Below, in pieces: positions 8,720 to 51,795 of a DNA stretch of 64,000 nucleotides. Each line of letters opens with the position of its first letter. Position 1 is the stretch's first letter. The notes under the pieces are model-generated. The model was not told where the DNA came from, ran no database searches, and saw nothing but the letters and a program-made list of their open reading frames with translations. The translations under genes and the position numbers were made by a program. The stretch is from Candidatus Parcubacteria bacterium (lineage in GTDB: Bacteria; Patescibacteriota; Minisyncoccia; Phycocordibacterales; CAIJYI01), in contig JAPLYL010000002.1 in NCBI GenBank assembly GCA_026395595.1, forward strand, positions 122,111 through 186,110, read 5' to 3'.

Positions 8720-9358
8720 TCAGTTCTTCTTCTCCCTATACCCCAACGCTTCAGCAAGATGTTTTTCCTGAATATCTTCACTTCCCGCAAGGTCGGCGAT
8801 GGTTCGTGCGAGTTTGATGATACGGTGATAAGCACGCGGTGAAAGCGATATTCTGGTCGCGGCGGAATTGAGGAGATTTTTCTCTTTTTCGCCAAGTGGT
8901 GCAAATTTTTCCAAATCTTTTGCGCTCATTTCGGAGTTGGTATTTATCTTTTTGTCGGCAAACCTTTTTTCTTGAATTTCTCTTGCTTTTAGTACTCTGT
9001 CGCGAATATCTTTAGAGGTTTCCATTCCTTCCGGCACTTTGTCAGAGAGTTTTTTGTAGTCGATTTCGGCGACTGGTAGGAAAATATCTATTCGATCCAT
9101 AATCGGACCAGAAAGTTTACGTTCATATTTGTAAATATCTCCTGCCGAACAAACGCACTCTTTTTTAGTACCTTTAAACCCGCACGGACACGGATTCATC
9201 GCGGCAACCAAAATGAAATTCGCTGGAAAAACTTCCGTCCCCTTCGCTCTTGAAATGCTCACAAATTTTTCTTCCAGCGGTTCGCGCAAGCTCTCTAAAA
9301 CTCGTTTTTCAAACTCAGGGAATTCGTCTAAGGTATATGTCCTACAAAAAACATTCAT
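8720..9358 (-). pseudogene. 3' fragment (C-terminal ~205 aa) of a comM/yifB paralogue
   Basis: The translation is ~90% identical to residues ~130-338 of the 9869..10885 ORF (DEFPEFEKRVLESLREPLEEKFVSISRAKGTEV...LAEALGYREKKN); nucleotide identity is ~85%; it has no N-terminal ATPase part. Confidence 0.7.
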
Positions 9359-9868: not shown

Positions 9869-11444
9869 TCAGTTCTTCTTCTCCCTATACCCCAACGCTT
9901 CGGCGAGATGTTTATCTTGTATGTTTTCACTTCCTGCCAAGTCGGCGATGGTTCGCGCAAGTTTTATAATCCGATGATACGCGCGCGGTGAAAGACCCAT
10001 GCGGGTTGCGGCGGAATTGAGGAGGTTTTTTTCTTTTTCTCCGAGCGGAGCGAATTTTTCCAAGTCTTTCGCGCTCATTTCGGAATTGGTATTTATACGT
10101 TTGCCTTCAAATCGTTTCGTTTGTGTTTCGCGAGCTTTTAAAACACGGTCGCGAATATTTTTTGAAGTATCGGTTCCCTCCGGCGCTTTGTCGGAAAGTT
10201 TTTTGTAATCAATTTCGGCGACGGGCAAAAAGATATCAATGCGATCCATAATTGGGCCGGAAAGTTTGCGTTCATATTTGTATATGTCGCCGGCCGAGCA
10301 GACGCACTCCTTTTTAGTACCCTTAAATCCGCACGGACAGGGATTCATCGCGGCGACCAAGATGAAATTCGCCGGAAACACTTCTGTCCCCTTCGCGCGA
10401 CTGATTGAAACAAATTTTTCTTCAAGCGGTTCTCGCAAGCTTTCCAAAACTCGTTTTTCAAATTCGGGAAACTCATCTAAAAACAAGACTCCGCGATGTG
10501 CGAGGGTTACTTCGCCCGGTTTTGGAAAAGCTCCGCCTCCGATCAGTGAAACATATGAAGAAGTATGATGCGGAGCGCGAAATGGGGCGGTGGTGACAAG
10601 CGGTTCTTTAAGTGTGCCGGAAATAGAGTGAATCCCCGTTATCTCCAGAGCTTCTTCAAAAGAAAGTTCTGGCAGTAATTGCGAAAAAGCGCGCGCCAGC
10701 ATAGTTTTCCCTGTACCGGGCGGGCCGAACATAAGAACATTATGCTTTCCTGTTGCGGCGATTTCCAAACCTCGTTTTGCGGTTTCTTGCCCCCCGTACG
10801 TCTTCAAAGCCGTATTCACGCAGTGTTTCTCTTTTTTCAACTCTTCCCGGAACATGAGGCGGAATAGCCTTCGAAGCTGTTTCATCTTCAGATGTCATAG
10901 TATTCAGGTGTCTAATGACCTGTAAAAGCGTTTTACATCCAAAAACCGTAATACCCTCAATGATTGAGGCTTCATCTGCATTCTCATATGGCAGAAAAAC
11001 TTCGGTAAAACCTTTTTCTTTTGCTTTTTGAACCAGAGGAAGCGCCCCTTTAATAGGACGCAGTTCCCCGTTTAATCCGAGTTCTCCCAAGAAAAGTTTT
11101 TCTTTGGTATCAAACTTTATTTCTCCGCCGGCTAACAAGTATGTTAATGCGCACGCGAGATCAAAAAGAGTCCCCTCTTTTTTTATATTTGCCGGAGTGA
11201 GAGAAATTATTATTTTCTGATTTTTTGCTTTCGGTGATTTATACCCGGAATTCTTTATTGCTGCGGAAATGCGGTCTTTTGATTCATCAACGGATTTGTC
11301 GGGAAGTCCTACGACGGAAAAAGAGGCCATTCCTTTAGAAATATCCACTTCCACACAGACAATATGAGCGCGCAGTCCGACAGATTGAGCGCTATAACTT
11401 TTTGCGAAACCCATGATACATAAGAAATAAGCAAAAAGAAACAA
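9869..11444 (-). CDS. comM: Mg-chelatase-like AAA+ ATPase ComM/YifB, interrupted by a 1-nt frameshift in a G6/C6 tract (~10791-10796)
   Basis: The 10740..11444 ORF gives the Lon-like N-terminal domain; the 9869..10885 ORF gives Walker A GPPGTGKT and the C-terminal Mg-chelatase domain; the frames join as ...GFEDVRG|QETAKRGLEIAATG, the expected YifB junction. Confidence 0.8.
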
Positions 11445-16756: not shown

Positions 16757-16786
16757 AAAACGCCCAGAATCTGGGCGTTTTTTTAT
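16757..16786 (+). terminator. rho-independent terminator
   Basis: AAAACGCCCAG-AAT-CTGGGCGTTTTTTT. Confidence 0.75.
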
Positions 16787-17508
16787 AATTTTTGAAATAA
16801 AAGCTTGAATATTTTTCGCTGAAATTCCGCAATCATAGGATTTTCAATAATAACAGCCGTTTCGGTATTATAATCAACGAAAGCTATTTTATCGCCGTAA
16901 ATAAGCTGGGTTATGTCATATTCAAAAAGGTCAAAACTTTTCGGAATTATTTTTACCGATTTTTCAAACTTTATTTTTTTCCATTTTTTTGAACCTTCAT
17001 TCGTGATGACATACCTTTCCAGTTGTTTTTCATCGCGCAGTTTTGTGTAATTTTCCGAAACATAATATCCTCGTTTTTTCAGTATGGTGGGGGAACTGTA
17101 TCGATAAAACGTATCCCCTTTTTTGAGAGTGGCGACAATATCGTCATAAACCTTTCGTACTCCCTCTGTACCGTCAAGAAAGATGGTAAACGGTCGTTTT
17201 TCTTTTTTGTTGAATTCTGACAACATTTCAGGAAGAGCGCGGTTGAGATCGTTGCCAAGAGAAGATAGCAGAGAAGCAAGTTTTTCCGGCGATGCCGCCA
17301 TAAACAACTTTCTTTTTCCTTTTATGGTTGTGTTTACCAAATTTCGTTCTTGAAGTTTTGGAAGCACTTTATACACTTCCGGACGATACAATTTTGTTGC
17401 GGCGGATATTTGAGAAATAGAAAGATTGCCTTTGTGTAAAAGAGCAAGGTATACAGCGCTTTCTTCTTTTGAAAGTCCTATTTTTTGTAAAATATCATTT
17501 GTTTCCAT
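16783..17508 (-). CDS. TrmB-family transcriptional regulator (HTH)
   Basis: N-terminal wHTH (ILQKIGLSKEESAVYLALLHKGNLSISQISAATKLYRPEVYKVLPKLQERNLV) followed by a TrmB-like C-terminal domain; the likely start is METNDI. Confidence 0.65.
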   Translation of the reverse strand: METNDILQKIGLSKEESAVYLALLHKGNLSISQISAATKLYRPEVYKVLPKLQERNLVNTTIKGKRKLFMAASPEKLASLLSSLGNDLNRALPEMLSEFNKKEKRPFTIFLDGTEGVRKVYDDIVATLKKGDTFYRYSSPTILKKRGYYVSENYTKLRDEKQLERYVITNEGSKKWKKIKFEKSVKIIPKSFDLFEYDITQLIYGDKIAFVDYNTETAVIIENPMIAEFQRKIFKLLFQKL

Positions 17509-19689: not shown

Positions 19690-19708
19690 GTTATCCACAG
19701 TTATCCAC
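19690..19708 (+). promoter_or_regulatory. two tandem perfect DnaA boxes (TTATCCACA g TTATCCACA)
   Basis: Exact matches to the 9-mer consensus at 19690-19698 and 19700-19708, immediately after the xthA stop. Confidence 0.5.
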
Positions 19709-19956
19709 ATTAAAGGACTTGCGTATAAAGGACAAGGAAGTATAATAATAATCAGATAGTGATTCAATAAATAGATAACCAAGGGAACTTATTTGTTCTA
19801 CCGCCTCAACAAAGGCAACCATCTATAAAAACATTATCATAGTCAGTCACATTTGTTCTTTCCTAGGTCACAAAAAATAGAATATACCCCAAGGGCCGCA
19901 CATGCGGCCCTTTATTTATTATTGGTGCTAACCGAGCGGTCTTTTTCGCGACCTTT

Positions 19957-20696: not shown

Positions 20697-20960
20697 TTAT
20701 TGATAGATCTCATGCGAACCTATTTTTAATAAAAATACCGTATTTTCTTCCCCGTACTCAAAAATGATTCGAAATTTATAATTTACTGAAAAACTATAAA
20801 AACCAGACAATTGACCGCCAAGTTTATGAACTTTTAACAATTTATGGTTTCCTTGTTCCTTAAAAAGTTCAATTTTTTCAATCGCCTCGTCTTGAAGCGC
20901 TATCGGAAGTGATTTCCATTGGCGGATAAAGAGAGGAGCATAAGCAATATCTAATTCCAT
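20697..20960 (-). CDS. RelE/ParE-superfamily toxin (type II toxin-antitoxin)
   Basis: 87 aa; the C-terminal SFSVNYKFRIIFEYGEENTVFLLKIGSHEIYQ fits the RelE/ParE/YafQ-like pattern; it lies immediately downstream of the RHH antitoxin gene. Confidence 0.7.
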   Translation of the reverse strand: MELDIAYAPLFIRQWKSLPIALQDEAIEKIELFKEQGNHKLLKVHKLGGQLSGFYSFSVNYKFRIIFEYGEENTVFLLKIGSHEIYQ

Positions 20961-20970
20961 AAAAAGTATA

Positions 20971-21192
20971 TTACCCTAGTTGTTGAGAAAGCTCTCTTAT
21001 ATCCCCCCGCATTGCTTTACCTGCGTGAATTTCTTGCTGTGCCTTGAGAACATCGCTTACCGCCTCATCTTCAGCGAGAAGACGGAGCGCTTGTCTTACT
21101 ACCTCGGCTTTATTTGAAGCCCGGCCTTTCTTTACAAAAGAATCAATAAATTCTTCAAGAGCTGGGTTTAATGGAACAGAAAGAGTACTCAT
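20971..21192 (-). CDS. ParD-like ribbon-helix-helix antitoxin
   Basis: 73 aa; MSTLSVPLNPALEEFIDSFVKKGRASNKAEVVRQALRLL is typical of ParD/COG3609 antitoxins; 10-nt gap to the toxin gene. Confidence 0.7.
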   Translation of the reverse strand: MSTLSVPLNPALEEFIDSFVKKGRASNKAEVVRQALRLLAEDEAVSDVLKAQQEIHAGKAMRGDIRELSQQLG

Positions 21193-21531: not shown

Positions 21532-23223
21532 TTATTTAACCCCGTGTTTCTTGCGTATTTCAGTAAGTTCTTGTTCCTCAGCCTCAGCTTTTGCCTCTTT
21601 CCCTTCTTCTCCAAGTTTTTTAAGCTCTGATTCCGGAAGTTTTATAAGTTCTTGAGTGCGTTTCTCAAGATATTCTGCTGTGTTGAGGTTTGGATCTTCT
21701 AAAACCTCCTCCAGGAGCGCGTGCAGGATAAGTCCAAGTTTTGGTCCGGGTGTTTCATGTGTAACCTCCATTATTCTCGTACCATCAATTTTGAGCATTC
21801 CGACGGAAACAGGTGCACGCATCGCTTCTTCTATCATCGCCTCGTATTTTCGTAAACGATAGGGTTTTTCAACCGGTCTTCCCATTCCAATACGGTCACA
21901 TGCCCTTATTTTCATAAGATCCCACACATTTTCCGGTCCGACATTCGCAACAATCCTTCTTACTGCTGAAAGCGTTATCTTTTCCACATCTGAGAAGAAA
22001 AGATGATATTTTACCAGAGATGAAACCGTATCGGAAAGTTTCACGGGAAACCTTAATCGTTCCATTATCTTCTTTGAAACCCTTCCACCAACGACGTCAT
22101 GCCCGTAAAACGTCCAATTGTCCTTCTCTTTAGACCATCGGCGTGTTTCCGGCTTGGAAATATCGTGCAGCAAAGAGCCTAAACGGATATGAAGAGGCCA
22201 ATTATGCCTCGCCGCATTATCAAGAGCGCGAAGGTTATGTTCCCAGACCGTATAGATATGACTCCCGTTTTGTTCCACACCAATCCCCTTTTCCAGTTCC
22301 GGGACGATAAATCGCAATAAACCAAGCTCATGAGTCAAAACGATACCGCTCATAGTATTCTCCGACATAACTATTTTTACAAATTCATCACGAATTCTTT
22401 CACATGAAACATGTTTCAGATTGTCGGAAAGCTGTTTTATGGCATCTTCCGTCTCTTTTTCTATAGTGAAACCCAGTTGGGTAGCAAAACGAACAGCGCG
22501 CAGTAAACGAAGAGCGTCTTCATTGAAACGGTCTTCCGGTTTCCCTATTGCCCTGACGATTTTGTCCTTTATATCAGATTGTCCTTTATAAAGGTCAACA
22601 ATAATACCCTCTTTTGGGTTGTATGCGAGTGCATTTATCGTAAAATCACGGCGTTTCAGGTCGTCTTCCAGTTTTTTACTGAAAATCACCGCATTCGGAT
22701 GCCTTTTGTCGCTATATTCCGATTCCATTCGGTAAGGCGTAACCTCTATAATAGTTGTTGTTTCATGTGTAACAGGGTTTTCCTCATTTTTTAATGTTTC
22801 ACATGTAACTATTTGATTGACCGCTCGCGCGGCTCGCTGTGGCGTAGGAGTCAGTCTGGGGACTGACGGATGAAAACCTACGGTTTTCATACTTTCCCTT
22901 GTTTCACATGTAACATTTTCGTCACCACCATCTGATGTTTCATGTGTAACGGTCGGTCGGACGTGGTCTCTGACCCCGTCCGGAACATTTGTATTTACCA
23001 CAACCCCCACGGTTCCAAAGGTATTTTCATAGAAGGTTTTCTCAAAAAGCCCGATTATTTCTTCCGGTACGGCATTAGTGGTAACATCCCAATCTTTCGG
23101 TTCCCTTCCCAAAATAAGATCTCTTACACAGCCACCAACCAAATAAGCTTCAAAACCGGCGTCTTGAAGGGTTTCTGTTACACGTGTAACATATAATGGA
23201 ATATGGCTCTGTAAGTCTTTCAT
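21532..23223 (-). CDS. cca: CCA-adding tRNA nucleotidyltransferase (class II, with HD domain) carrying an ~85-aa in-frame insertion
   Basis: LVGGCVRD, RRDFTINA, ERxxxE and a C-terminal HD motif (LLHDISK); the insertion falls between the FGTVGVV and IEVTPYRMESEY blocks. Confidence 0.8.
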   Translation of the reverse strand: MKDLQSHIPLYVTRVTETLQDAGFEAYLVGGCVRDLILGREPKDWDVTTNAVPEEIIGLFEKTFYENTFGTVGVVVNTNVPDGVRDHVRPTVTHETSDGGDENVTCETRESMKTVGFHPSVPRLTPTPQRAARAVNQIVTCETLKNEENPVTHETTTIIEVTPYRMESEYSDKRHPNAVIFSKKLEDDLKRRDFTINALAYNPKEGIIVDLYKGQSDIKDKIVRAIGKPEDRFNEDALRLLRAVRFATQLGFTIEKETEDAIKQLSDNLKHVSCERIRDEFVKIVMSENTMSGIVLTHELGLLRFIVPELEKGIGVEQNGSHIYTVWEHNLRALDNAARHNWPLHIRLGSLLHDISKPETRRWSKEKDNWTFYGHDVVGGRVSKKIMERLRFPVKLSDTVSSLVKYHLFFSDVEKITLSAVRRIVANVGPENVWDLMKIRACDRIGMGRPVEKPYRLRKYEAMIEEAMRAPVSVGMLKIDGTRIMEVTHETPGPKLGLILHALLEEVLEDPNLNTAEYLEKRTQELIKLPESELKKLGEEGKEAKAEAEEQELTEIRKKHGVK

Positions 23224-23283
23224 AAGAGCAATTGTAACAAACTTTTGATATTTTGTGAATTTTAGTGTAGTATACGATTATAA

Positions 23284-23355
23284 GCGCCCGTAGTGAAACG
23301 GATATCACAACGGTCTTCGAAACCGTTAGTCCAGGTTCGAGTCCTGGTGGGCGCA
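23284..23355 (+). tRNA. tRNA-Arg (anticodon TCG)
   Basis: I folded the cloverleaf by hand: acceptor GCGCCCG/TGGGCGC, anticodon loop CTTCGAA, T-loop TTCGAGT, discriminator A; CCA is not encoded. Confidence 0.85.
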
Positions 23356-23418
23356 CAAGAAATATATAAGTATTTTTTCTATTGAAAAAACTTTTATTTT
23401 TCGTATAATAGTGACATT

Positions 23419-23489
23419 GCGGGTATGGTTTAGTGGTAGAACATTTGCTTGCCAAGCAAAAGACGCGGTTTCGATTACCGCTACCCGCA
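23419..23489 (+). tRNA. tRNA-Gly (anticodon GCC)
   Basis: Acceptor GCGGGTA/TACCCGC, anticodon loop TTGCCAA, T-loop TTCGATT. Confidence 0.85.
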
Positions 23490-23496
23490 CAATGAG

Positions 23497-23524
23497 AAAA
23501 TACCGCCATGTGGCGGTATTTTCT
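23497..23524 (+). terminator. rho-independent terminator after the tRNA pair
   Basis: ATACCGCCA-TG-TGGCGGTAT followed by TTTT. Confidence 0.65.
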
Positions 23525-23525
23525 G

Positions 23526-23534
23526 TTATCCACA
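23526..23534 (+). promoter_or_regulatory. perfect DnaA box TTATCCACA
   Basis: Exact 9-mer; a second copy lies in reverse orientation at 23950-23958 (TGTGGATAA). Confidence 0.4.
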
Positions 23535-23567
23535 TAATTAAACTTTCTTTATTTTGTTCATTATTTT

Positions 23568-23891
23568 GTGTATACTAAAGATATGGAAATTAAAACTGAG
23601 TTTGAATCCGCTCTTATTTTACACAACATGCGCGAGTTCGTTATGGACAAACACAAGTTTGATGAATGCATACCGGAAAATATGAAAGAAGACCGAGAAT
23701 ACGGCTTTCTTGTGTCCGGACAGCGCAATTATTGGCTTTTGGGAAAGTTTCCTTTGCATGAAAAACGAGAAGATGGCGTCGTTTCAGCAGATCCGCGCGC
23801 TATTATTAATATCTTTGAAGTAACACATTTCATCGATAACGGACAGATTTGTACGCGAGGAAAATATAAAATACTCCAGATTGTGGGATAA
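23568..23891 (+). CDS. hypothetical protein
   Basis: 107-aa ORF followed by the terminator ACACCC-CTTATC-GGGTGT-TTTT (23915-23937). Confidence 0.4.
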   Translation: MYTKDMEIKTEFESALILHNMREFVMDKHKFDECIPENMKEDREYGFLVSGQRNYWLLGKFPLHEKREDGVVSADPRAIINIFEVTHFIDNGQICTRGKYKILQIVG

Positions 23892-24172
23892 TACTCATCT
23901 ACCATGACTCTTAAACACCCCTTATCGGGTGTTTTTCTATCCCCATAGATATGTAAAACTGTGGATAACTCTGTGTACATGTGTATAAAGGACACTTTTT
24001 TGAACCACTCGCAAGCATTCTTTTTTTGACCTTTTGTCAATAAATGTGGCTTAAAATAACACTATTTGCTTAGGTCATCAAGAGAAAAAGGGTAAAGTAC
24101 AAAAGGGAAAAATAGACGTTTCACATGAAACGTTGTTTTGTGAATTTCCTTTAAAAGGGGTATTATCTTTTT

Positions 24173-24700
24173 ATGTCAAAGACCGAGAAACAAGAAACAG
24201 GGGATATTGGAGAGAAAATAGCGGGACTTTTTTTGAAAACCAAAGGGTTTACCGTTATTGGAACGAATTACCGAAAACCATGGGGAGAAATCGATATTAT
24301 TGTTCAGAAAAAAGGAAAGATTCATTTTATTGAAGTAAAAACCGTAAAAACAAGAGAAAATCAAAACCGATTAGACAAAGGACTTCCCTTAAGGAGGAGC
24401 GGTGAGCGACAAGGAAAGGGGAGTCTTTTGGGAGCGATTATTTTAGGAAAGTTTTTACCGCAGGAAAGATCCTATGCCATCAAAGAAATTTTTGAAGGGG
24501 ACGGTGAAACGAAAGGATATCGCCCCGAGGATAATTTGCACCCATGGAAGCTTCAGCGGCTAAAACGGGCAATTATATCGTATTTGGAAGAAAAAAGGAT
24601 GTCAGAAGAAGACGACTGGCAATTTGACGCCGTTACCGTTCGTTTAAACGAAGAAAGGAAGACTGCTTTGGTTGAGTATTTGGGGGATATTATTCTTTAA
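24173..24700 (+). CDS. YraN-family (UPF0102) endonuclease-like protein with a central insertion
   Basis: GDIGEKIAGLFL...GEIDIIVQKKGKIHFIEVKTVKTR, and the C-terminal WQFDAVTVRL block. Confidence 0.65.
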   Translation: MSKTEKQETGDIGEKIAGLFLKTKGFTVIGTNYRKPWGEIDIIVQKKGKIHFIEVKTVKTRENQNRLDKGLPLRRSGERQGKGSLLGAIILGKFLPQERSYAIKEIFEGDGETKGYRPEDNLHPWKLQRLKRAIISYLEEKRMSEEDDWQFDAVTVRLNEERKTALVEYLGDIIL

Positions 24701-45505: not shown

Positions 45506-45720
45506 ACGTTAAATTAAATTTACTATTAGTAATTGAATAATTTTCAAACTATACTATGTTTCAGCGAAAAAAACAAGGAAGAACGCGGTATCTCATCACG
45601 CACTTGTCGCCCGACGGGGTCAGAGACCCGGTCCGGCGTAGGAGATATAAAACGTGCAAACATCCGAGTTTTTGATATTATGATTTTATGCTCTGCTTAT
45701 AAAAGAGGATGGTTAAAGAA

Positions 45721-51019: not shown

Positions 51020-51048
51020 TTGACGAATACATGACAGGAAGTATAATA
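51020..51048 (+). promoter_or_regulatory. near-consensus sigma70 promoter TTGACG-17-TATAAT
   Basis: TTGACG at 51020-51025 and TATAAT at 51043-51048; the DnaA-box-like TTATCCACT at 51001-51009 lies just upstream; AGGAGA SD and ATG at 51055. Confidence 0.5.
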
Positions 51049-51054
51049 GGAGAC

Positions 51055-51795
51055 ATGCACCCCATACAACAAAAGATACTCTCTCTGGCGAAGAGTCAAA
51101 ATATCGCCGGGCTTACACTGCGGAAGATTGGCGAACTTATCAGTGAGCCGGACGCTCCGCAAAAGATCAAACACCATATTGATAAACTGAAAGAAAAAGG
51201 ATTATTGCTTTCTGGAGAAGGTGGCAAGCATCTGAAACCCGCTTCTGGTGGAATAGACAAAATGTCCAGTCTTGTATCTCTGCCGATACTCGGCTCTGCG
51301 AACTGCGGGGAAGCAACGATGTATGCCGACGGGGCGATTGAAGGCTATCTGAAAGTATCGCTTCGCATTTTGGGAGAAAAATTCAGAAATAAATTGGATG
51401 ACCTCTTTGTTTTGCGCGCTTCCGGAAATTCCATGAATCGCGCGAATGTTCACGGTAAAACCATTGACGATGGCGATTATGTTATCGCGGAAAGAATTCA
51501 TGAAGCGCCGAAAAGCGGGGAATATATCGTCTCCATTATTGAAGGTTTGGCGAATATCAAAAAATTCCTGATTGATACCAAAAACGAGCATATTATTCTC
51601 GCTCCCGAATCAAGTTTGGATTTTTCACCGATTTATATACATAAAGAAGACTATTCCGGCTATTTTGTTGGTGGCCGAGTAGTAGATGTCATCAAAAAAC
51701 CGGATGAATTCATGGATTCCTCTGCTGGCGATATCCTCAAATACGGCAAACCGATACGAGAGGTAGATTACTCAAGCAAGAAAAAGAAAAAATAA
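51055..51795 (+). CDS. LexA-like repressor (wHTH plus S24 peptidase domain)
   Basis: N-terminal HTH; C-terminal LRASGNSM (catalytic Ser) and ...KK (Lys) S24 motifs; the ORF track's start at 51031 would contain the -10 element. Confidence 0.7.
   Translation: MHPIQQKILSLAKSQNIAGLTLRKIGELISEPDAPQKIKHHIDKLKEKGLLLSGEGGKHLKPASGGIDKMSSLVSLPILGSANCGEATMYADGAIEGYLKVSLRILGEKFRNKLDDLFVLRASGNSMNRANVHGKTIDDGDYVIAERIHEAPKSGEYIVSIIEGLANIKKFLIDTKNEHIILAPESSLDFSPIYIHKEDYSGYFVGGRVVDVIKKPDEFMDSSAGDILKYGKPIREVDYSSKKKKK

Follow-up and report, generated by a model that had tools for sequence, protein, structure and literature searches.

A 64,000-nucleotide stretch of a Candidatus Parcubacteria genome (contig JAPLYL010000002.1, positions 122,111 to 186,110; hereafter the window) raises the question why one 14-bp palindrome recurs in and around a single gene, cca, which encodes the CCA-adding tRNA nucleotidyltransferase, and beside its divergent neighbor yraN. 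We conclude that the palindrome is very probably parS, the centromere-like site of ParB/Spo0J, clustered at or very near the replication origin. In well-studied bacteria ParB acts at parS as a CTP-dependent clamp that spreads on the DNA and recruits SMC and ParA. In the literature we found no description of parS or ParB in Candidate Phyla Radiation (CPR) bacteria. The element is of a known kind in a new lineage, and it is the arrangement as an in-frame array that is unusual.

The pattern GTTWCANNTGWAAC matches the window exactly seven times (starts 21752, 22760, 22796, 22901, 22937, 23177 and 24118) as opposed to 0.03 matches expected from 100 shuffles, which bears out the claim of an earlier note on this DNA that the repetition is far beyond chance. 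Its four copies in an insertion within cca (22760, 22796, 22901 and 22937) and the intergenic copy GTTTCACATGAAAC at 24118-24131 were right, but the list as a whole needed amendment. It omitted the exact copy at 21752-21765 (VTHET) and overlooked the near-copy GTTTCACGGGAAAC at 22038-22051 (RFPVKL, in the other frame); the copy given at 22397 reads CTTTCACATGAAAC (22397-22410), one base off the pattern, and the perfect palindrome GTTACACGTGTAAC, placed at 23173-23186, lies at 23177-23190. The cluster spans 21752-24131, which is 2.4 kb and not 1.75 kb. Defining a parS-like site as one with at most two mismatches to the 14-bp core GTTTCACGTGAAAC, we obtained nine sites, every one of them within this span, where a second-order Markov model predicts 0.46 across all 64 kb; the other 61 kb is free of them. 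The cluster straddles the divergent cca-yraN pair, with eight of the nine sites inside cca and the ninth, yraN-proximal, between the genes (Table 1). This ninth site is separated by 6 nt from a promoter-like TTGTGA-17-TATTAT and by 42 nt from the yraN ATG (24173). For whole-genome counts we suggest a pattern of at most two mismatches to TGTTTCACGTGAAACA.

Table 1 Coordinates of the palindrome sites and associated features in the window, in order of position.
Feature	Position	Strand	Remarks
Two tandem perfect DnaA boxes	19691..19709 (starts 19691, 19701)	+	downstream of cca
cca, class II CCA-adding tRNA nucleotidyltransferase with HD domain, 563 aa	21532..23223	-	hosts eight of the nine sites
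parS-like site near cca C-terminus	21752..21765		sense GTTACACATGAAAC = VTHET, residues 487-491
parS-like site GTTTCACGGGAAAC	22038..22051		1 mismatch; second permitted frame, R-F-P-V-K-L
Degenerate parS-like site CTTTCACATGAAAC	22397..22410		2 mismatches; in frame V-S-C-E-R
In-frame insertion, 84 residues (residues 76-159)	22747..22998	-	head-domain beta-hairpin, GTVGVV/EVTPYR
parS-like site, cca loop insertion	22760..22773		VTHET, residues 151-155
parS-like site, cca loop insertion	22796..22809		VTCET, residues 139-143
Module A, 91-nt three-hairpin repeat, IS200/IS605-end related	22810..22900	-	translated in frame; separate from parS
parS-like site, cca loop insertion	22901..22914		sense GTTACATGTGAAAC = VTCET, residues 104-108
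parS-like site, cca loop insertion	22937..22950		sense GTTACACATGAAAC = VTHET, residues 92-96
REP-like hairpin CGGACGGGGTCAGAGACCACGTCCG	22951..22989	-	dispersed repeat, translated VPDGVRDHVRP in cca
parS-like site GTTACACGTGTAAC	23177..23190		2 symmetric mismatches; frame V-T-R-V-T, cca residues 12-16
Perfect DnaA box TTATCCACA	23526..23534	+	between cca and yraN
Perfect DnaA box (TGTGGATAA on + strand)	23960..23968	-	between cca and yraN
Best parS-like site cGTTTCACATGAAACg (GTTTCACATGAAAC)	24118..24131		1 mismatch to core, intergenic
yraN (UPF0102)	24173..24700	+	divergent from cca

The identity of the palindrome emerges from relatives. We compared 84 loci of Paceibacteria (CPR/Patescibacteria; 1.35 Mb), 80 of them with 10-kb flanks around cca and four retrieved by protein look-up. 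They contain 383 parS-like sites, with a median of five per locus; 374 fall in the interval from -3 to +2.2 kb relative to the cca start and just nine in ~1 Mb of flanking DNA. The sites occur upstream of the divergent yraN, within yraN and within cca. Exact matches outside cca are all at most about 2.7 kb away, mostly just upstream of or inside yraN, and upstream sites mostly start within 60 nt of the yraN open reading frame (ORF). Perfect sites number 26, and the 22 outside cca are all upstream of it. The position equivalent to 24118 holds GTTTCACGTGAAAC in relatives (e.g., L002 4619), the N-terminal cca position of the 23177 site is occupied in 27 relatives and that of the 22397 site in nine, and the 22038 site is common to L001, L002 and L004. 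The base-frequency logo, built from 151 sites upstream and 202 within genes, gives T-GTTTCACGTGAAAC-A, and one locus (L022, which is RAAC4_OD1_1) carries tGTTTCACGTGAAACa beside yraN. The published chromosomal parS consensus is TGTTNCACGTGAAACA, with GTTTCACGTGAAAC in Mycobacterium smegmatis (PMC7022226). Judged by this match, the palindrome is the universal chromosomal parS consensus tGTTTCACGTGAAACa.

Chromosomal position points the same way. The window contains only four perfect DnaA boxes, all at 19.7-24.0 kb and on either side of cca. Across the loci, where the background is ~0.04 per kb, the density of perfect boxes rises to 0.6-0.9 per kb over the 1 kb upstream of cca and is 0.41 per kb immediately downstream; the enrichment on both sides of cca is found in relatives as well. 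This suggests a bipartite origin around cca and not beside dnaA, which is absent from the window. The cumulative GC-skew minimum of the window falls at about 22-24 kb, and in 33 of 36 relatives the skew downstream of cca exceeds that on the yraN side, which is the origin-like direction (p = 9e-8). Because the cluster of DnaA boxes and the sign change of the GC skew coincide here, we place the locus at or close to the replication origin: the cca-yraN locus is origin-proximal and may be oriC itself. In three loci dnaA lies within 10 kb of cca, and in eight Parcubacteria genomes the two genes are 23-43 genes apart (Nelson & Stegen 2015, core-gene table).

The earlier note had proposed a family of transcription-factor operators or, alternatively, a recombination/insertion hotspot. 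The first idea is right insofar as the sites appear to form a family bound by a DNA-binding protein, but we favor parS over operators through which the TrmB-like protein (16783-17508) or the S24-peptidase LexA-like protein (51031-51795) would regulate yraN and cca, because of the identity with the consensus, the flanking DnaA boxes and GC skew and the class-wide conserved arrangement. Such operators are improbable in our judgment, even though the 24118 site ends 6 nt upstream of the promoter-like -35 element of yraN and TrmB-family genes lie a few kb from cca in the window, L001 and L002. Some regulation is conceivable in any case, as ParB itself can be a local repressor. The motif is identical to parS and, to our knowledge, unlike any TrmB or LexA site. 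Mapped relative to promoters, only one of the nine window sites is found at one, while the rest are intragenic, scattered in two frames through 1.5 kb of coding DNA. Moreover, the only conserved neighbors in the 84 loci are yraN and the DnaA boxes, not TrmB or other regulator genes, and the near confinement of the sites to this locus likewise speaks against operators.

The second suggestion, the hotspot, leads to the cca insertion. As evidenced by its PolyA_pol head, RNA-binding and HD domains, the protein is a class II CCA-adding enzyme. Its closest homologs are Paceibacteria proteins of 484-641 residues, and all of this length variation is confined to a single place between strand GTVGVV and strand EVTPYR, where the extra loop sequence consists of V-[T/S/P/A]-x-E-T pentapeptides and variable linkers. 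Alignment to solved CCA-adding enzymes shows that residues 75-158 of the window's enzyme stand in place of a 6-residue turn (6IBP residues 111-116). We rejected a location in the 'flexible loop', since the 6IBP alignment puts the insertion in the turn between GTVLV and IEVTTFR, upstream of that loop. The insertion is a mosaic which reads, in the sense direction, repetitive extragenic palindrome (REP)-like hairpin, motif, 22-nt spacer, motif, 91-nt Module A, motif, 22-nt spacer, motif. Across 76 parsable cca genes the hairpin loop is 11 to 141 residues long, and longer loops tend to hold more parS-like sites (Spearman correlation 0.76, p = 1e-15). Basal loops of 11-12 residues, such as VNEDTEDETLKV, have a site in only 3 of 34 cases; L008 accommodates six sites in a 55-residue loop, the window four in 84 residues.

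Module A is a passenger of wider distribution. Further copies are found at L002 6576-6662, at L004 4281-4370 and in L085-L140; those in L002, L004 and L005 directly follow tRNA genes, and in L001 the unit of motif plus Module A occurs twice in tandem. The 5' hairpin, GAAAGTATGAAAACC-N3-7-GGTTTTCAT or GGAAAGTATGAAAACC-N3-7-GGTTTTCAT, was detected on 56 contigs in a scan of CPR-rich metagenomes. In L088, L089, L093, L105 and L110 it precedes ORFs by at most about 30 nt, of which those of L089 and L105 match PF01797 (IS200-like Y1 transposase) and the other three are IS200-like by eye; in the remaining contigs it is a component of other mosaic repeats. With this shared subterminal hairpin and its dispersal over many contexts, Module A is, by sequence comparison, a miniature element derived from IS200/IS605 ends. 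Only 3 of 57 copies stand in frame in long ORFs (cca, an L136 ORF and an L108 ORF). Among the copies in cca, three 1-nt indels shift and then restore the frame, and hence it is the open frame and not the peptide that is conserved. We also considered whether the 91-nt core might be tRNA-like or a ribozyme, and rejected this, as ARAGORN found nothing there and the core is a dispersed IS200-end-related repeat. Rfam searches of the whole window (gathering threshold) and of 22600-23100 (E <= 10) returned tRNAs and noise only. RNAalifold misaligned the middle hairpin of seven Module A copies, and covariation there was judged by eye. The GC-rich REP-like hairpin (CGGACGGGGTCAGAGACCCGCGTCCG) also occurs at 45605-45635 of the window and at L004 1545-1680 and 7415-7550. 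In L004, two inverted hairpin copies lie inside a ~140-nt element with terminal inverted repeats (CCTCTTTCAAAAG...), which is present twice, in opposite orientations.

The hotspot idea thus holds insofar as a mobile mini-element does sit between two copies of the palindrome. It could be taken further, with the palindrome as terminal repeat, target site or target-site duplication of some mobile element invading cca after the fashion of Rickettsia palindromic elements (RPEs). GTTACATGTGAAAC stands on both flanks of Module A (22810-22900), the Module A family is dispersed with its hairpin preceding IS200-like transposase genes, its copies are translated in different frames among genomes, and the tandem units of L001 fit as well. 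We nevertheless regard this explanation as very improbable. Around the 56 Module A copies outside cca we found no parS-like sequence (22 nt upstream and 40 nt downstream; minimum 4 mismatches), so that the palindrome is neither end nor target of Module A. Many loops consist of parS-like sites and short spacers without any Module A, and the 14-mer is not dispersed as an RPE-like repeat would be, being absent from the rest of the window and rare in the flanks of relatives. IS200/IS605 elements, furthermore, are not known to make target duplications. RPEs were reportedly described by Ogata et al. in 2000 as selfish repeats that lie in frame in protein-coding genes. Module A and the REP-like hairpin resemble them as dispersed, hairpin-forming repeats which occupy, in frame, an exposed loop of an essential enzyme and whose reading frame differs between copies. 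The likeness is limited to these passengers and does not extend to the palindrome, and the Module A hairpin is related to IS200/IS605 ends and rarely intragenic.

Inside the genes, constraint acts on the DNA and not on the peptide. The codons of the motif, compared in the window and three relatives, read GT[T/G] NCA NNT GAA ACN. The second residue is T, S or P, its codon always ending in CA; the third is H, C, R, Y, G or P with a codon always ending in T, and glutamate is always GAA. The 90 V[STPA]xET peptides of the 84 cca genes have on average 1.9 mismatches to GTTTCACGTGAAAC compared with 3.9 expected when synonymous codons are resampled from the same cca gene, and 62 of the 90 have T, A, T and A at the four third positions. 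Sites in cca occupy many differing positions among lineages, 155 of them in the frame V-S-R-E-T, 39 in x-F-H-V-K-x and 7 in the frame that creates TGA. Within yraN we counted 77 sites in 46 loci, with a frame bias like that of cca; in the window's yraN, the in-frame parS-like sites of relatives are reduced to the remnant GGTGAAAC.

A functional V-T-x-E-T repeat in the CCA-adding enzyme, of which the palindrome would be a by-product, is hardly credible against these data. The loop copies do share one frame and similar pentapeptides, and the N- and C-terminal copies coincide with conserved peptide positions. Yet third codon positions are fixed where amino acids vary, which also disposes of the codon artifact of a VTxET peptide that the earlier note had considered, and conservation among relatives, which it had left open between DNA and peptide, is at the DNA level. 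In addition, the motif occurs between genes, in a second frame (RFPVKL, KFLVKH) and in the unrelated yraN, and the repeat is mostly missing from basal loops. Finally, an RNA hairpin in cca/yraN transcripts, recognized by an RNA-binding protein or RNase, has next to no likelihood: the insertion region does fold more stably than shuffled sequence (z = -5.0) and the 24118 palindrome scored as a weak terminator-like hairpin, but Module A hairpins account for most of the excess stability, half-sites are conserved in sequence with no compensatory substitutions seen, a stem of 6 bp closed by a 2-nt loop is sterically unfavorable, and an Rfam match is absent.

The sequence of the sites strongly implicates ParB as the protein that would bind them. 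A ParB-type binding protein in this lineage is plausible because COG1475 is listed for 13 of 17 Parcubacteria genomes, RAAC4_OD1_1 included, and SMC for 14 of the 17 (Nelson & Stegen 2015, Table S1). Several points weigh against the parS reading. Regular expressions and phmmer found no ParB or ParA gene in the window, within 10 kb of cca in the 84 relatives or on 56 additional metagenome contigs (1.7 Mb of fetched loci in all), and Pfam scans of 20 window proteins gave no ParB domain. COG1475, which we take to be the Spo0J/ParB family, is labeled 'Predicted transcriptional regulators' in the 2015 table. The nine window sites include no perfect parS, with one mismatch at 24118 and 22038 and two at the other seven. 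Motif counts cover the 64-kb window and the loci of relatives, and further sites may lie elsewhere in the genomes. Gene orientation, lastly, partly confounds the GC-skew evidence.

A comparison with known systems places the array among chromosomal centromeres. B. subtilis-type parS (TGTTNCACGTGAAACA, including a site in spo0J) shares the 14-16-bp palindrome and the origin-proximal copies, and there as here coding copies are tolerated in the frame V-[P/S/T]-R-E-T. The pentapeptide V-P-R-E-T is part of B. subtilis Spo0J, as a check against PDB 6SDK and 5NOC showed. VPRET back-translates to GTT CCA CGT GAA ACA, in the same frame as the V-x-x-E-T sites of cca. GTT CCA CGT GAA ACA is the classical parS within spo0J, at the VPRET position. 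Unlike the B. subtilis type, eight of nine sites here are in one 1.7-kb gene, four of them in one loop whose length tracks site number; the array has no parAB operon nearby and no perfect site in the window. Myxococcus xanthus has 22 parS sites, Streptomyces coelicolor 21 and Corynebacterium glutamicum 10 (PMC7022226 Table 1). These, too, are clusters of many near-consensus sites close to the origin, in contrast to which the present cluster takes up 2.4 kb and mostly one gene. The clusters of the three species spread over a much larger region, and we know of none that has expanded a protein loop. P. aeruginosa ParB binds half-parS and degenerate parS sites (PMC10419367). The cca copies GTTACAYRTGAAAC similarly combine one perfect half (TGAAAC) with a weaker half, but half-sites in P. 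aeruginosa are scattered genome-wide, whereas the degenerate sites here are confined to the centromere locus. Noc-binding sites (NBS, ATTTCCCGGGAAAT) represent a sister specificity in the ParB family, with a similar 14-16-bp palindrome and a ParB-family helix-turn-helix. The sites described here differ from NBS in having parS-specific bases (G at position 1 and a CACGTG center) and in clustering at the origin, while NBS are excluded from the terminus region.

How such an array could arise is a more tentative matter. It is conceivable, though we would not yet lean toward it, that the Paceibacteria centromere is built largely in two genes flanking the origin, that selection for ParB sites and not a property of the enzyme has repeatedly lengthened loops of cca and YraN with V-[S/T]-x-E-T units, and that the repeats, as recombination substrates, capture mobile mini-elements in frame. 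On the parS reading itself, the nine parS-like sites form one origin-proximal 2.4-kb centromere cluster over the divergent cca-yraN pair, with the best site just upstream of the yraN promoter and the other eight written into cca. The palindrome permits two cca frames, V-[S/T/P]-x-E-T and x-F-x-V-K-x, the third giving a TGA stop and being avoided. Four of the eight cca sites occupy a loop of the catalytic head domain. From about 12 residues this loop has expanded in this lineage to 84, for the most part through the addition of sites, with the IS200-end-derived mini-element and the REP-like hairpin as passengers. In a gene-dense genome, a selective advantage of additional ParB sites near the origin would drive this expansion, sites being accommodated where the protein tolerates them, and slippage or unequal recombination between the 14-bp repeats would change their copy number and capture neighboring repeats.

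If this is true, a cis-acting segregation element directly shapes the length and sequence of a protein. The loops of 11-141 residues are a clear case of a DNA-level signal in coding sequence that visibly alters the product. On the parS reading, the centromere of a large uncultured class of bacteria lies, probably together with the replication origin, at a conserved landmark, the divergent cca-yraN pair, useful for genome orientation, for replication rates from metagenome coverage and for the design of genetic tools. There is also a warning for annotation, in that VTHET/VSRET repeats and length variation of cca and yraN in CPR bacteria are not features of the enzymes.

Some further observations concern the surroundings of the array. 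The window's YraN has 175 residues compared with 124-145 in most relatives. About 45 extra residues come from the stretch GACAAAGGACTTCCCTTAAGGAGGA... (24340-24500), which is like a mosaic repeat in L099 and L113 and constitutes a second in-frame repeat insertion at the cca-yraN locus. Genes for tRNA-Arg(TCG) (23284-23356) and tRNA-Gly(GCC) (23419-23490) adjoin cca; as their 3' CCA is not encoded, the adjacent CCA-adding enzyme should be essential. Promoter-like sites of cca (23231-23259, minus strand) and yraN (24138-24166, plus strand) both stop 7 nt short of the ATG, suggesting that the transcripts are leaderless. Directly downstream of cca are two small ORFs (20697-21192), and the syntenic pair in L001 gave weak matches to ParD antitoxin and HigB-like toxin families. 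Farther away, the neighboring ORFs 8720-9358 and 9869-10885 each show a match to Mg-chelatase/ComM-like ATPase domains, and the shorter, limited to the C-terminal two thirds, has the appearance of a truncated duplicate.

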